Below are positions 10,264 through 34,382 of a DNA stretch of 64,000 nt, piece by piece (within the stretch, counting starts at the first letter, position 1; the number at the start of each line of letters is the position of its first letter). The DNA is taken from assembly GCA_963667425.1 (NCBI GenBank), contig OY763407.1, positions 2,081,142 to 2,145,141 of the forward strand, in the 5' to 3' direction. The position numbers were made by a program, and so were the translations under genes. A model generated the notes under the pieces. The model was not told the origin of the DNA. It saw only the letters and a list, made by a program, of their open reading frames with translations, and did no database searches. The stretch is from a bacterium (GTDB lineage Bacteria > UBP6 > UBA1177 > G963667425).

Positions 10264-10683
10264 TCAGCCTTTTTTATCAAGTTTTCCATATTTATTTGCA
10301 GAACCTTTGTAATATTTCATTTTTCCTTTGTTCTGCTGAAGCATTTTAAGTTCTTCTTTTATTCTGATAAGAGATTTTTTTACAAGCTCCTGATTAAGAG
10401 CTTCCTGTTTAAGAGCATCATCCAAAACTTTTAACCCGTATTCTCTTTCCTTTTTTAAAGGATTTTCAGGGTCCTCATTTAATGACAGGTCCTTGTTGTC
10501 CATTTCTATAAGCTCTTTAATTCTAAGGCATTCAGTTAAAATTCTATCCTTTTTATTTAGAAGTGAATTCATTTTATCAATATCAGGATTCTGCTGTTTT
10601 AACTGAAATTCTATTTCACGGTTTATTACTGACAGTTCTTCATAGTTATTGTTAAGACGGATCAAAAGTTCCTGCTTAGCCAT
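10264..10683 (-). CDS. Hypothetical coiled-coil protein (last gene of the zinc-ribbon/PilZ operon)
   Basis: 139 aa, highly charged and alpha-helical. Its start overlaps the stop of the upstream PilZ gene by 8 nt, suggesting translational coupling. Confidence 0.5.
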   Translation of the reverse strand: MAKQELLIRLNNNYEELSVINREIEFQLKQQNPDIDKMNSLLNKKDRILTECLRIKELIEMDNKDLSLNEDPENPLKKEREYGLKVLDDALKQEALNQELVKKSLIRIKEELKMLQQNKGKMKYYKGSANKYGKLDKKG

Positions 10684-11440
10684 CAGCTACCTTTTTTCTT
10701 TTATGTATTTCCTCTATTTGTCTTTCCAGTATATATTTTGCTATAAGCTCTCTATCCTGTTTCTGTATATGAACAAATTCAGCACCAACTTTAAAATATG
10801 CACCGGCAGAAGAAAATGCTTTTGAAATAGTTTTTACTTGTACAGAAGCATTTATAAAAATTCCTGAAGAAAAATATAAAGAGGCCTCAAAAACATCATC
10901 TGCTGTAAAATCATTATGATTCTGCGCTTTAAAAGAAAGTCCTCCCTCACTTATATCAAAAACCCGGAAGCTTTCTTTTTCAAATTTACTGTTAAAAGAA
11001 ATATTAATATCATTATCGACTGTTGTTGAAACTCTGAAAAAACGTCTTCTCTGCTGCCTGCATATCGATGAAGGAAACTTAACAACAAAATAACCTGATT
11101 TTTTATCATAACCGGCAATAATGGTTTTAAATGCACACCAGACTTTGTCAACAGAATACAAAAATACAATTATTTTATTCTTTATAAGTTCATTTACAAG
11201 TGCTTCAGACATAAGCTTGTCAATAAGAATAAGTACTTCTCCTCCTCTCTGGAGAATTTTAAGGAAAAGAGTAGTACCGTTAATATAAATATTTTTTCTT
11301 TTTGAATAAACTTTTACGTCAATTCTCGTCGCCGCCTCAATTGCAGAAACAATATTTTTCTGAATAGCTACAGCTTCATCTAAAATCTGTATGTTGTCTG
11401 ATGGTTTTTTGTTCTCAAGTAAAAAATCGAAATCCTTCAT
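10676..11440 (-). CDS. YcgR-like PilZ-domain protein (putative c-di-GMP receptor / flagellar brake)
   Basis: Canonical PilZ c-di-GMP binding motifs RxxxR (RQQRRRFFRV) and D-x-S-x-x-G (DISEGGLSF). The N-terminal half resembles a YcgR_N/PilZN domain. Confidence 0.75.
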   Translation of the reverse strand: MKDFDFLLENKKPSDNIQILDEAVAIQKNIVSAIEAATRIDVKVYSKRKNIYINGTTLFLKILQRGGEVLILIDKLMSEALVNELIKNKIIVFLYSVDKVWCAFKTIIAGYDKKSGYFVVKFPSSICRQQRRRFFRVSTTVDNDINISFNSKFEKESFRVFDISEGGLSFKAQNHNDFTADDVFEASLYFSSGIFINASVQVKTISKAFSSAGAYFKVGAEFVHIQKQDRELIAKYILERQIEEIHKRKKVADG

Positions 11441-27985: not shown

Positions 27986-28900
27986 TTAATTTGTTGAATC
28001 AAGAACTTTTTTAGTTTCAAGATATTCTTCATTTACATCGAGAATTGTTTTTTGAAATTGTTCTTCAGTCATATTAAAGTAGTTTATAAAATTATTGTCT
28101 AAATGATAATGGAGAGAATCAATACCTGTTCCGGAACCTGCCATCATTGCAACAATATCAGCAATATGAATAAGAAAACATATTGGTTTTTCACCATCTG
28201 GAGCTTCAGATGGTGTATGATGATATCTTGCAATAATCTCAAAAACTTCGGGAAGCTGCCAATGTTTAACAAGTATTTCTCCAGCCTCAGCATGGTCTAT
28301 TCCAAGAAAATCTCTTTCAAGTTCAAGATTATCAGAGTTGTTTTGTTCATTCATTTTTTTTACAATATTTTCATACTGTTTTTCCAAATATGTTGAAAGA
28401 AGAGATTTTCCTATATCATGAACCAAACCTGCAGTATAAGCAAGACCTCCATCAACTTTATCCTTTAAATAAAGTGCCAGAAATCTTGCAGAAATAGCTG
28501 TTTTTAAAGAATGTTCCCAAAGTTCTCCACTTTGAGCTCTGTAACCTCCAAGCTCATTTTTAAAAACATCAGGAGCTGCACTTTCCATAGTTATTGCAGT
28601 AAGAGCTCTATTTCCAATCAAAGGTAAAGCCTCATGTACAGAAACTATTTTTCTTGAAAAAGAAAAAGCTGAAGAATTAACTGTTTTAAGTATTTTACCT
28701 GAAAGAACAGAATCGCTTTCAACAATTATTGCAACATCTTTATAACTAAAATCTGTTTTATCAAGAATCTGTAATAATTTATATGCAGATTCAGAAATAA
28801 CAGGAACAGATTTTATCTTTTTATTGATTTCAGATCTTGCATCAACCTTTTTAACAGTATTGCCAAGTAATTCATCTATTTCATCTATATTCATTCCCAT
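27986..28900 (-). CDS. HDOD-domain signalling protein
   Basis: HDOD core (AAPDVFKNELGGYRAQ...TAGLVHDIGKSLL). Last gene of the che operon. Confidence 0.75.
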   Translation of the reverse strand: MGMNIDEIDELLGNTVKKVDARSEINKKIKSVPVISESAYKLLQILDKTDFSYKDVAIIVESDSVLSGKILKTVNSSAFSFSRKIVSVHEALPLIGNRALTAITMESAAPDVFKNELGGYRAQSGELWEHSLKTAISARFLALYLKDKVDGGLAYTAGLVHDIGKSLLSTYLEKQYENIVKKMNEQNNSDNLELERDFLGIDHAEAGEILVKHWQLPEVFEIIARYHHTPSEAPDGEKPICFLIHIADIVAMMAGSGTGIDSLHYHLDNNFINYFNMTEEQFQKTILDVNEEYLETKKVLDSTN

Positions 28901-28921: not shown

Positions 28922-29413
28922 TTAAAGTTCCCAGACACCTTTTTCAGGATTGAACAGCAGAGTCATGCCACTTGAAATATCAAGTGTTACTGTTCTACTT
29001 ATGTTTCCTCCGACATCCTCTTTTTCCGGTGTAAGACCGAAACGTGAAAGCACTTCTCTTGCTTTAAGAATATTCTTTTTTCCTATATTAAAAAAATTGT
29101 CAGCATCCATAATAGATGCTCCTCCGGCAAGTTTTATAGAAAGATATTTTCTTGAAAGTTGAGGATTTTTCTGTTTCATCATTTTAAGCAAAAGAGGAAT
29201 ACCTGTATCTGCGAAATAACCTGGTTTAGTCTCACTTTTTGCCTTATCTGTTTCCGAATTAGGAAGAGCTATGTGTATCATTCCACCATTGTTTGTCATT
29301 TTATCATACAAAACGACGGCAACACAGGAACCTAAAGCAAATGTTTTTATAAACCCTGAAGGAGCATCTGAAACTCCTAAATCACCTATTCCAAGTACTA
29401 AGTTAGTCTGCAT
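28922..29413 (-). CDS. cheD: Chemoreceptor glutamine deamidase CheD
   Basis: Signature LGSCVAVVLYD...GGMIHIALP...LAGGASIMD...EDVGGNISRTV. Confidence 0.8.
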   Translation of the reverse strand: MQTNLVLGIGDLGVSDAPSGFIKTFALGSCVAVVLYDKMTNNGGMIHIALPNSETDKAKSETKPGYFADTGIPLLLKMMKQKNPQLSRKYLSIKLAGGASIMDADNFFNIGKKNILKAREVLSRFGLTPEKEDVGGNISRTVTLDISSGMTLLFNPEKGVWEL

Positions 29414-30468
29414 TAGACATCTCCATTTATTTTTTTTATCAGGGCACTTGTAATTTTATCAAGAGGAAGAATTTTGTCAACTCCGCCAACATCTGCAGCA
29501 ACTTTAGGCATGCCATAAACAACGGAAGTAGATTCATCCTGAGCAACATTCCATGCACCTGCATTCTTCATTGCAAGCATTCCGTCAGCACCATCCCGCC
29601 CCATACCTGTAAGCATAACACCATAAGCATTTGCTCCTACCTGCTCAGCAACAGAATGCATCATAACGTCGACTGAAGGACAATGCCCGCTTACTTTTTC
29701 ACCTTCCTGACATTTTACTATATAAATTCCGCCGGAACGCTGAACTCTTAGATGTTTTCCACCGGGAGCAACAAGAATTCTGCCTGTAAGAATTCTATCT
29801 CCATCTTCAGCTTCTTTTGCAGACATATTACATATTTCATTAAGTCTGTCTGCAAACATTTTAGTAAAGACAGGCGGCATATGCTGAACAATAACAATAC
29901 CAGGCGTATTTGAAGGAAGTTCTGTAACAACAGCTTTAATTGCCTCTGTACCTCCTGTACTTGCACCTATTGCAATAACTTTATCTGTAGATTCATAAAG
30001 AGCTTTCTGTTTTGTTCCAGATTTGTTGGTTGTATATTTTTTCTGTTTCCAGTGAGAAACGTTTGCAGTGGATGCCAGTTTAATTTTTGTAGAAAGTTCT
30101 GTTAAAAGCGCAACCAGGCCACTTGATAAATTCGTCAGAGGTTTTGGTACAAAATCTATTGCTCCTGCTTCAAGAGCATCAATTGTTATCTGTTTCCCTC
30201 TTTGTGTAAGGGAACTTACAACAACAACAGGCAATGGATACTGCGGCATTAACCTTCTTAAAAACTCAACACCATCCATTCTGGGCATTTCTATATCAAG
30301 AGTGAGTACATCAGGAGAAAGATCAACTATCATATCTCTACCCACATACACGTCAGGAGCTGTACCTACAATCTCTATTCCCGGGTCTCTTGAAAGTCCT
30401 TCCGATAATATTTTTCTTACAAGCGCAGAATCATCAATAATTAAAACTTTAACAGGAGCTTTTTTCAT
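29413..30468 (-). CDS. cheB: Protein-glutamate methylesterase / response regulator CheB
   Basis: N-terminal receiver domain (VLIIDDSALVRK) and a C-terminal methylesterase domain with GASTGGTEA and catalytic-triad regions. Confidence 0.9.
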   Translation of the reverse strand: MKKAPVKVLIIDDSALVRKILSEGLSRDPGIEIVGTAPDVYVGRDMIVDLSPDVLTLDIEMPRMDGVEFLRRLMPQYPLPVVVVSSLTQRGKQITIDALEAGAIDFVPKPLTNLSSGLVALLTELSTKIKLASTANVSHWKQKKYTTNKSGTKQKALYESTDKVIAIGASTGGTEAIKAVVTELPSNTPGIVIVQHMPPVFTKMFADRLNEICNMSAKEAEDGDRILTGRILVAPGGKHLRVQRSGGIYIVKCQEGEKVSGHCPSVDVMMHSVAEQVGANAYGVMLTGMGRDGADGMLAMKNAGAWNVAQDESTSVVYGMPKVAADVGGVDKILPLDKITSALIKKINGDV

Positions 30469-30479
30469 ATATTACCTGC

Positions 30480-31334
30480 CTACTTAAGAGGTTTTCTATA
30501 AAGAGCTGGCATTACATATTCAAATTGCGTATTTGTTCTTCCAAGAGTTTCAGAATGACCAATGAAAAAATATCCTCCAGGAATTAAATGCCTATAAAAT
30601 TTATCAACAAGAGCTTTTCTTGTTTCGGCATCAAAATATATCATTACATTTCTACAGAAAATTGCGTGAAAAGGCTTTTTAAAAGGAAAAGTAGGATTCA
30701 TAAGATTAAGCCTTTTAAAAACGACTTCCTTTTTCAAAGTTGCATTAACCTCAAGATTTTCCCCAGATGAGAGAAAATATTTATGTTTCATGCCAGGTGG
30801 AATCAATTTAGTCTTATCAAGTGGGTAAATACCTTTCATAGCCTCCTTTAAAACTTTTGTGCTTATATCTGTTGCAAGCACACCGGCATCATACATAGAA
30901 TAATGCATTCCGAAAAATTCTATCATTATCATAGCCAGAGTATATGGCTCCTCTCCAGAGGAACATCCGGCACTCCAAATTCTTACATCTTTTTCATTTT
31001 TTGCTGAAAGAGACGCTTTTAATTCAGGAAGTGCAACATTGTAAAAAAAGTCAAAATGATCTTTTTCTCTAAAGAAAAAAGTATGGTTTGTGCTTACAGC
31101 ATTTATTAATCCACTTGCAGCATCACCAGTTTTATCATTGACAACATAGTTAAAGTATTCATCAAAAGTAGTAAAATTACCCTCAAAGACTAATTTTCTT
31201 AAACGACTTTGAAGCATTCCCTTTTTTTGTGGAGGAAGGTTTATTCCAAAATTATCATAGACATACTTTGATATTTTTGTGAATTCACCATCCGTAATAG
31301 TTAATTCAGCCAAAGCATTATCAAGAAGAAACAT
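30480..31334 (-). CDS. cheR: Chemotaxis protein methyltransferase CheR
   Basis: N-terminal helical domain plus SAM-MTase fold (VRIWSAGCSSGEEPYTLAM, FCRNVMIYFD). Confidence 0.9.
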   Translation of the reverse strand: MFLLDNALAELTITDGEFTKISKYVYDNFGINLPPQKKGMLQSRLRKLVFEGNFTTFDEYFNYVVNDKTGDAASGLINAVSTNHTFFFREKDHFDFFYNVALPELKASLSAKNEKDVRIWSAGCSSGEEPYTLAMIMIEFFGMHYSMYDAGVLATDISTKVLKEAMKGIYPLDKTKLIPPGMKHKYFLSSGENLEVNATLKKEVVFKRLNLMNPTFPFKKPFHAIFCRNVMIYFDAETRKALVDKFYRHLIPGGYFFIGHSETLGRTNTQFEYVMPALYRKPLK

Positions 31335-31852
31335 TATAACCCCCTCTTTTTCCTTGTTATCAATTTAGGATACCAGTCATCACTTCTTACATTTTCAACC
31401 TTTGCAACCATTGTCTCTCCTGTAAACGTATTAAAAACAATTTTACGTCCACGAGAGCCACCGGTATCTATTCCAGCTAAAGGTATATTTTTAGACAACA
31501 GTATTTTTTTAGCAGCGTTTATGTTTTCCTGTGCCAGATTTTTTATATATCCGCTGGCAGAAGGATTTTCAGAACCTCCATAAATATAAGCCTCTATTCT
31601 GGAAAAGTTTGAAGTTTCTTTTTTACAACTTTTAATAAGACCTAAAATTGAAGGTTCAGCAAAATATGGTGTCGGAAGATCCGAATAAGAAAGAACTGGT
31701 TTTATAAAATATGACATCCCACCTGTTTTAGTAATGTAGTCGTATAATGTAACAACAATGCCGGAGCCAACAACCGAGCACATAAGCACAGGCTCTTTTG
31801 AATAGCAGATATAGCCCGGATTAATAAAAATCTTCTCAGGCAAATCGGACAT
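31334..31852 (-). CDS. Second CheD-family paralog
   Basis: GSGIVVTLYD...GGMSYFIKP...IYGGSE...IDTGGSRGRKIVF parallels the CheD signature, diverged from the 28922-29413 copy. Confidence 0.6.
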   Translation of the reverse strand: MSDLPEKIFINPGYICYSKEPVLMCSVVGSGIVVTLYDYITKTGGMSYFIKPVLSYSDLPTPYFAEPSILGLIKSCKKETSNFSRIEAYIYGGSENPSASGYIKNLAQENINAAKKILLSKNIPLAGIDTGGSRGRKIVFNTFTGETMVAKVENVRSDDWYPKLITRKKRGL

Positions 31853-31867
31853 ATGGACTCCCTAAAA

Positions 31868-34276
31868 TTAACTTGTCGTTTTTTGGAAAAAGCTATCTAT
31901 ATCAAGAATTAAACTTATTCCTCCATCTCCCAAAATTGTACAACCACTTATTGCTTCAACTTTGCCTATATATTCAGACAAACCTTTTATAACTGTCTGT
32001 TGCTGACCGATAATTTCATCAACAAAAAGAGCCGCACTTCTTTTACCTGACTCAATAACGATTATAATTCCATCTTCAAGATTTCTGCTGAAAGGCTCTA
32101 TGTCATGTAATTCATGAAGTCTTACAACCGGAAGGAGCTCCTCTCTTAAGCGGATAACTTCATCCCCATCAGGAGAAACAGTTATCTGTTTTAACAGAGG
32201 TTTATGGAATTCTCTTATAGAAAGCATTGGAAGTATATACTCCGATTTACCAACCCGAACTCTCATTCCTTCAATAATAGCAAGAGTAAGAGGAATTCTA
32301 AGAACAACACGTGTTCCTTTACCTTCAATAGATTCCACATCAACCTTACCTCTTATTTTTTCGAGGTTTTTCTTAACAACATCCATTCCCACACCACGAC
32401 CTGAAATATCAGTTATTTTTTCTGCAGTGGAAAAACCCGGTTCAAAAATAAGATTAAAAATCTCTTTATCTGTAAGCTTGGTATTTTCATCAATTATACC
32501 ATTATCTATAGCTTTTTTTAGAACTTTCTCTTTATTAATACCCGCACCATCATCTTCAACAATTATCCAAACTTCACCTTCTTCATGTTTCGCAATAAGT
32601 TTAACATCTCCTTCCGCAGACTTGCCAGAAGCAACTCTTTTTTCCTGAGTTTCAATACCATGATCAAGAGAGTTTCTTATTATATGAACAAGTGGATCGG
32701 TAATAATTTCAACAACAGTTTTGTCAATTTCGGTTTCTTCACCAAAAAGTTCAAATTTCACTTTTTTCCCAGACTTATTTGAAAGATCATGAACCAGACG
32801 AATCATTCTCTTGAAAAGACCGGAAACAGGAACCATTCTTATTGTCATTGCAGTTTCCTGAAGCTCTCTGACTATTTTTGTCATCTGCTGAGAAGCTTTG
32901 GAAAAATTCTCAAGCTCCAGACCTGCAAGATCAGGATTGTGTGCAAGCATATTATTTGAAATAACAAGCTCTCCTATCAAATTTACAAGTATATCAAGCT
33001 TTGCAATATCAACTCTAATATCCTGTCTATTGTTTATGAGTGCTTTTGTAACCTTTGTAGATGCAGCTGCTTTGCTTTTGGTTTCCTTTATTTCCTGCTG
33101 TTTTTTGAGTGCCGAATCAACAGTTTCCTTGCTTGTTTTACCAAGTTCTACAAGAACTTCTCCAAGTGGCTTTTTCTGTTCATCAAGAGCTTTCTGAACA
33201 TCATCAGGAGAAACCTTACCCATATCGACGAGTCTTTCTCCGAGAGGTTTTCTTTGCTGGCACAAAGCATCTTCTATATCTTTTCTTGAAACTGCACCAT
33301 CTTTTTCAAGAATATTGCCAAGTTTATCCGAGTTTTCCATTTCAATTGAATATCCTTTAGGAAGGATATCTTTAATCAACTCAAGATACAGATCCAGATG
33401 TTCAATATCTGAAGCATTACCCTGAGCTATATCATCTATTGTATCTTTTAGAATATCAATAAGCTGAATAAATGTCCCTGATACTTCTTTAAGCGTTGGT
33501 TTTTGAACTTCTTTCGAAGCTGTTAAAACAGATTCCATACCATGAGTTAAAGCTGTGATATCAGAAAAACCCATAAAACCTGAATTACCTTTAAGAGTAT
33601 GAACTGTTCTGTAGGCAAGATTTGTAAATTCTTTCAATTCTTCAGGAGAAGGTGCTTCTGTCTGAACTGTAAGAAAAGTTTGTTCCAGAGTTCTTACAAG
33701 ATCATTAGCTTCTGATAAAAACTGCTCAAGCATTTCTGCAGACATTTCCAGTCCAAAACCTTCAAAAGGATTCGCTTCATTTTCTTCCTGCTGTTCATTT
33801 ATAGGCGATTTAACCGCTTCAGCAGAAACAACCGGCTCAATTTTTGAATCACCACTGAGACCTGCCGCTATTGCTTTTTCGAGGATAGCCTTCATTTCAA
33901 GAGCTTTTTCCTCTATTGGCTCATCCGAAGCATTCTGCTCTATTGTATCTAATGCTTCTTTTATAAAGTCAGAAGACTGAACAAAAAGTTCAATATGGTT
34001 TTTATGTGGAGTAATTTTATTGCTTCTGATATTATCAAGTAACGTTTCAGCTGTATGAGAAACACTTTGAATATTGTTAAGCATAAGAAAGCCGGCACCG
34101 CCCTTTATAGAATGAAATGTCCTGAAAATAGAGTTAATAGTTTCTATATCAGCTTCCCCATTATCCAGTTCGTTTCCATAAGAAATAATGGAAACCTCAA
34201 GGTCTTCTATAAGTTCTCTACAGTCTTTGACAAAATCCTGAAGCAATTCGAGATTTTCAGCACTTAAATCAGCCAT
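31868..34276 (-). CDS. cheA: Chemotaxis histidine kinase CheA with tandem Hpt(P1) domains and an inserted triple MshEN/T2SSE_N-like repeat
   Basis: Two Hpt domains with His (FHSIKGGAGF and VHTLKGNSGF). Three 24-aa LGxxLxxxGxxSxxxVxxALxxQ repeats, a dimerization (P3) domain, a HATPase_c domain (N, G1, G2 boxes) and a CheW-like P5 domain. The likely true start is the ATG at 34276 (GAGGAG RBS); the ORF track starts at 34306. Confidence 0.9.
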   Translation of the reverse strand: MADLSAENLELLQDFVKDCRELIEDLEVSIISYGNELDNGEADIETINSIFRTFHSIKGGAGFLMLNNIQSVSHTAETLLDNIRSNKITPHKNHIELFVQSSDFIKEALDTIEQNASDEPIEEKALEMKAILEKAIAAGLSGDSKIEPVVSAEAVKSPINEQQEENEANPFEGFGLEMSAEMLEQFLSEANDLVRTLEQTFLTVQTEAPSPEELKEFTNLAYRTVHTLKGNSGFMGFSDITALTHGMESVLTASKEVQKPTLKEVSGTFIQLIDILKDTIDDIAQGNASDIEHLDLYLELIKDILPKGYSIEMENSDKLGNILEKDGAVSRKDIEDALCQQRKPLGERLVDMGKVSPDDVQKALDEQKKPLGEVLVELGKTSKETVDSALKKQQEIKETKSKAAASTKVTKALINNRQDIRVDIAKLDILVNLIGELVISNNMLAHNPDLAGLELENFSKASQQMTKIVRELQETAMTIRMVPVSGLFKRMIRLVHDLSNKSGKKVKFELFGEETEIDKTVVEIITDPLVHIIRNSLDHGIETQEKRVASGKSAEGDVKLIAKHEEGEVWIIVEDDGAGINKEKVLKKAIDNGIIDENTKLTDKEIFNLIFEPGFSTAEKITDISGRGVGMDVVKKNLEKIRGKVDVESIEGKGTRVVLRIPLTLAIIEGMRVRVGKSEYILPMLSIREFHKPLLKQITVSPDGDEVIRLREELLPVVRLHELHDIEPFSRNLEDGIIIVIESGKRSAALFVDEIIGQQQTVIKGLSEYIGKVEAISGCTILGDGGISLILDIDSFFQKTTS

Positions 34277-34382
34277 ACTATATCTCCTCACATACAAAAT
34301 ATGCATTTTTTAACAAACAATTATAAAAAGATGTGAAACAAAAGTAAAGTTTATAAAACAAAGAAAGCATTGTTTTAGATTC

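Follow-up and report, generated by a model that had tools for sequence, protein, structure and literature searches.

The 64-kb window, the whole stretch of DNA analyzed here, encodes a CheA in which three tandem 24-aa units lie between the second Hpt domain and the dimerization core, and the question raised by this locus is whether these units are a c-di-GMP receptor built into the kinase itself. The source DNA has a GC content of 34%. The cheA ORF (812 aa) spans positions 31868-34306 of the minus strand; an 802-aa database protein (P0001) is 100% identical to its product with 99% query coverage, which suggests that translation starts at M11 (nt 34276). Pfam analysis placed Hpt domain 1 (P1a, PF01627) at aa 20-124 (33935-34249), the P3 dimerization domain (H-kinase_dim, PF02895) at aa 428-489 (32840-33025), the P4 kinase domain (HATPase_c, PF02518) at aa 537-674 (32285-32698), and the P5 CheW-like domain (PF01584) at aa 680-809 (31880-32269), all on the minus strand and each above its cutoff. 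A second Hpt domain (P1b, PF01627 on the subsequence) is also present at aa 191-288 (33443-33736, minus strand). The phospho-acceptor of Hpt domain 1, His65 within FHSIKGG, is invariant in the ortholog alignment, and His236 of Hpt domain 2, within VHTLKGN, is near-invariant. No P2 domain was detected by Pfam in this CheA; the repeats, which the initial annotation had assigned to a P1-P2 linker, are hence situated in a P1b-P3 linker. Downstream of cheA, also on the minus strand, Pfam identified cheD (31334-31852), cheR (30480-31334), cheB (29413-30468), a second cheD (28922-29413), and a gene for an HDOD/HD protein (27986-28900). The domain set and the che gene operon identify the protein as a CheA chemotaxis histidine kinase.

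The three motifs, whose sequences are exactly as first quoted, are R1 (KLGNILEKDGAVSRKDIEDALCQQ; aa 328-351, 33254-33325), an A-type (first) motif, and two B-type motifs, R2 (PLGERLVDMGKVSPDDVQKALDEQ; aa 354-377, 33176-33247) and R3 (PLGEVLVELGKTSKETVDSALKKQ; aa 380-403, 33098-33169), all on the minus strand. The array, located between the end of Hpt domain 2 (aa 288) and the start of H-kinase_dim (aa 428), has a strict 26-aa period; its spacers are 2 aa long, RK before R2 and KK before R3, and not about five residues. Nucleotides 33095-33322, read on the minus strand, encode L329-Q404 of CheA, and the plus-strand translation of this interval is meaningless. R3 is followed by a Lys/Ala/Ser/Thr-rich linker of 24 aa (aa 404-427; 33026-33097, minus strand), into which the final helix predicted by AF2 extends as far as about aa 411. 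L2, G3, G10, I/V17, L21, and Q24 are all present in each of the three motifs. The consensus pattern proposed for all three units fails in R1, where core position 7 is Glu in place of L/V. At positions 11/12, part of the bundle core, R2 has K-V and R3 has K-T, and none of the motifs satisfied the published relaxed PHI-BLAST pattern, the core mismatches being E7 in R1, K11 in R2, and K11 and T12 in R3. Position 1 is Lys in R1 and Pro in R2 and R3, with a Lys before each Pro, and is never Arg. When all six reading frames of the window were scanned with a strict regular expression for the motif, R1-R3 were the only three matches. The DNA copies of the motifs are 46-53% identical to each other, and TRF found no tandem repeat at the DNA level; these data ruled out a recent DNA duplication of the units and showed that the array is old and kept at the protein level.

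The relationship of the repeats to MshE, as claimed at the outset, was borne out by profile searches and by alignment to PilF and MshE. The NCBIfam profile NF053729 ("c-di-GMP_motif, MshE-related"; 53 positions, curated cutoff of 38 bits) matched CheA at 61.5 bits (E 4.8e-17). R2 and R3 together scored 53.3 bits in one stretch covering profile positions 1-53 of 53, R1 and R2 together scored 47.4 bits, and the single motifs scored 20.2 bits (R1) and 30.9 bits (R2). In a phmmer search of PDB chains, the top match among solved structures was Thermus PilF (E 6.9e-13), over all three repeats and best on its GSPII-C domain, while MshE (5HTL) gave E 0.08; NCBIfam cross-matches to NfrB and EpsG were weak and located on the motif region. 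The Pfam T2SSE_N profile (PF05157), on which the initial annotation would have had the identification depend, gave no match up to E 10 with either full CheA or the insert alone, and Pfam gave only a sub-threshold DUF4388 match. PF05157 begins in the last half-motif of MshEN_N and models mainly MshEN_C (PMC5013675 supplement), a part that the insert lacks, so we do not count the absent match as a refutation. A word-indexed search with the 95-aa insert alone was uninformative, its one match being a protein of 153 aa that itself matches DUF4388 and DUF2949. On these sequence comparisons, there is good evidence that R1-R3 are genuine MshE-type 24-aa motifs of MshEN_N membership, and Pfam together with NCBIfam gives the layout Hpt-Hpt-(MshEN_N motif x3)-P3-P4-P5, lacking P2.

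Orthologous CheA proteins carry the same kind of insert. About 120 orthologs, only about 50% identical overall, keep the 26-aa register and hold two, three, or four motif copies. G3, G10, and Q24 show little or no variation among them, L2, L6, V/I17, and L21 are conserved, and in the last motif G3 and Q24 reach 100%. The positions that contact c-di-GMP in MshE (L2, G3, G10, L/V17, L21, and Q24; PMC5013675) are thus among the conserved ones. Several of the orthologs also have a precomputed match to Pfam PF27543. As judged from the motif sequences, the third copy in this CheA is a duplicate of the second (B-motif HMM scores of 58.5 bits for R2 and 55.2 bits for R3), an A+B ancestor having given rise to A-B-B'. 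The ancestral unit of this CheA clade would have been a pair of 24-aa motifs, A+B, with a 2-residue spacer, and its 26-aa B unit would have doubled in this lineage. The MshEN module occurs in 22 of 80 sampled diverse CheA genes, roughly a quarter, including members of the Planctomycetota, Nitrospirota, Spirochaetota, Actinomycetota, and Pseudomonadota (MAGs and isolates). Spacers of 1-13 residues are used by CheA modules other than that of the window.

The motif arrangement was compared with that of proteins of known structure or function. MshEN_N of Vibrio cholerae MshE (PDB 5HTL; PMC5013675) has the same tandem 24-aa motif, xLGxx(L)(V/I)xxGxxxxxx(L/V/I)xxxLxxQ, but in two copies with a 5-aa spacer (a 53-residue unit), as against three copies with 2-aa spacers (a 50-residue unit) in the window CheA, and with Arg at motif position 1 in place of K, P, and P. 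The MshE domain lies N-terminal to a T2SS/T4P ATPase, whereas the CheA insert is internal to a kinase and lacks MshEN_C. The GSPII-C domain of Thermus thermophilus PilF (PDB 6F8L, 6EJF; PMC11731258), which is reported to bind c-di-GMP, likewise has three consecutive motifs, and its motif II has Pro at position 1 ("KPLGEILVELG"), as in R2 and R3. PilF, however, has longer spacers (7 and 5 aa) and a degenerate third motif (RLED), and C-terminal to its array come an MshEN_C-type subdomain and the ATPase. E. coli NfrB, Methylobacillus EpsG, and Bdellovibrio Bd2402 also carry MshEN_N without MshEN_C on an unrelated output, but their outputs are a glycosyltransferase, a tyrosine kinase, and a REC domain, respectively, rather than CheA, and their spacers are 3-5 aa.

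We lean toward the view that R1-R3 form an MshEN_N-type c-di-GMP receptor module in the flexible tether between P1b and the kinase core. This reading is supported by the NF053729 score, the PilF match, the conservation of the contact residues, the retention of two to four copies, the presence of the module in 22 of 80 CheA genes, the three-motif parallel with PilF GSPII-C, and the MshEN_N-only fusions already catalogued. It is also supported by the AF2 secondary structure of the insert, which reproduces the MshEN_N helix pattern exactly (short a1, long a2, short a3, long a4, as in MshE; pLDDT 85-92). Each motif would fold as a short-helix/turn/long-helix hairpin, and, by analogy with MshE and PilF, two adjacent hairpins would clamp one c-di-GMP through L2/L17/L21 hydrophobic clusters, G3 backbone NH groups, and Q24. 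Ligand binding may order or compact the tether and so alter the access of P1 to the P4 ATP site, or its docking partners, in which case the c-di-GMP level would directly tune CheA autophosphorylation, in parallel to PilZ adaptors. The nucleotide binding, its stoichiometry, and the direction of the kinase effect are what we infer here; the searched literature contained no c-di-GMP binding data or experiments on any CheA-embedded MshEN module.

The genomic context, which had been taken to make c-di-GMP sensing coherent, is a weak argument for it. A PilZ-domain protein of 254 aa is encoded at 10676-11440 on the minus strand with intact RxxxR (RQQRRR) and DxSxxG (DISEGG) motifs, and since a canonical PilZ receptor is encoded, c-di-GMP signalling in this organism is very likely; this too favors a receptor. 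The PilZ gene, however, lies about 20 kb from cheA, outside its operon, and no GGDEF, EAL, or HD-GYP gene and no c-di-GMP riboswitch was found in the 64-kb window. The HDOD gene was rejected as contextual support; HDOD is not known to have an established c-di-GMP role.

Several features speak against a receptor: the 2-residue spacers, K-V and K-T at positions 11/12, E7 in R1, the lack of a starting Arg, the lack of a T2SSE_N match, and known examples of degenerate, non-binding MshEN domains. As for the first residue, Arg at motif position 1 is dispensable and the position has been widened from Arg to R/K/L (PMC11731258). An unlikely but serious alternative is a degenerate MshEN_N-derived hairpin array that binds no nucleotide and acts as a structural spacer or docking element in the P2-less P1-P3 tether, for example by substituting for P2 in docking CheY/CheB or by setting tether length. 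In its favor are the AF2 tertiary models of the insert, which showed no MshEN_N-like bundle and did not match the MshE fold, the weakened hydrophobic core (K11, T12, E7), and the absence of P2; against this last point, the Aeromonas CheA has P2 together with the MshEN module. Spacers in the family range from 3 to 9 or more residues, and those of the window CheA are below the shortest in the supplement alignment (3, in Bd2402; PMC5013675). A precedent is found in Xanthomonas XpsE/GspE, whose N-domain (PDB 2D27) retains the MshEN_N-like four-helix region and yet binds no c-di-GMP (PMC5013675); XpsE, however, has lost the key residues, which the CheA motifs keep. A degenerate array is further opposed by the ligand-contacting positions being the most conserved and by a score well above the NCBIfam curated cutoff.

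The short spacers also admit a variant of the receptor, which we regard as doubtful: with only 1-2 residues between them, two motifs may not manage to close an intramolecular bundle, consistent with the AF2 models, and c-di-GMP sites might form in trans across the obligate CheA dimer or, in this three-motif protein, between the non-adjacent R1 and R3. If so, c-di-GMP would be a "staple" of two P1-P3 tethers that gates trans-autophosphorylation, and A-B-B' could provide several ligand sites, with sensing that is cooperative or graded. It is improbable that the module recognizes another cyclic dinucleotide in place of c-di-GMP, for instance 3'3'-cGAMP, or that it binds cGAMP as well as c-di-GMP. 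The closest CheA relatives with a name come from Desulfuromonas, Desulfuromusa, and Desulfobulbaceae, a group in which Geobacter-type bacteria use cGAMP signalling. MshEN also binds cGAMP weakly (PMC5013675). Against this, both half-sites and the backbone NH pattern at G3/x4 are those expected for guanine recognition, and no cGAMP synthase or riboswitch was seen in the window. That the repeats arose by chance or are low-complexity helix lacking any specific function, as the short, helical, charged-residue-rich segment might suggest, is highly implausible and is refuted by the E-values for NF053729 and PilF, the register kept in the orthologs, and the uniqueness of the R1-R3 matches in the window.

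A putative receptor module in CheA, as favored here, is not in itself new, contrary to what the initial annotation had implied. Wang et al. 2016 (PMC5013675) described MshEN_N-only modules on varied outputs, CheA among them, and their Supplementary Table 4 already catalogues an HPT-P2-MshEN_N-P3-P4-P5 CheA. In that protein, a bioinformatic prediction, the MshEN_N motif pair likewise lies directly upstream of P3, but there is one Hpt domain with a P2, and two motifs with a spacer of about 9 aa, whereas the window CheA has a second Hpt domain, lacks P2, and carries three motifs set 2 aa apart. By sequence, then, the fusion has been on record since 2016 and many CheA genes carry it. The window adds no new concept; it adds a three-motif, two-Hpt, P2-less variant that shows in-register duplication of the unit.

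MapZ-CheR1 and the YcgR-motor interaction follow the same logic, c-di-GMP modulating chemotaxis output, but they act indirectly through a separate adaptor of unrelated fold, whereas the CheA receptor would lie within the kinase. The cited c-di-GMP control of chemotaxis and motility is of this kind, exerted by separate PilZ proteins and not by a kinase-embedded receptor. If the CheA-embedded module does bind c-di-GMP, the central kinase would itself be a direct target of this second messenger, and this would be relevant to many chemotaxis systems, given how widely the module occurs among the sampled CheA genes.

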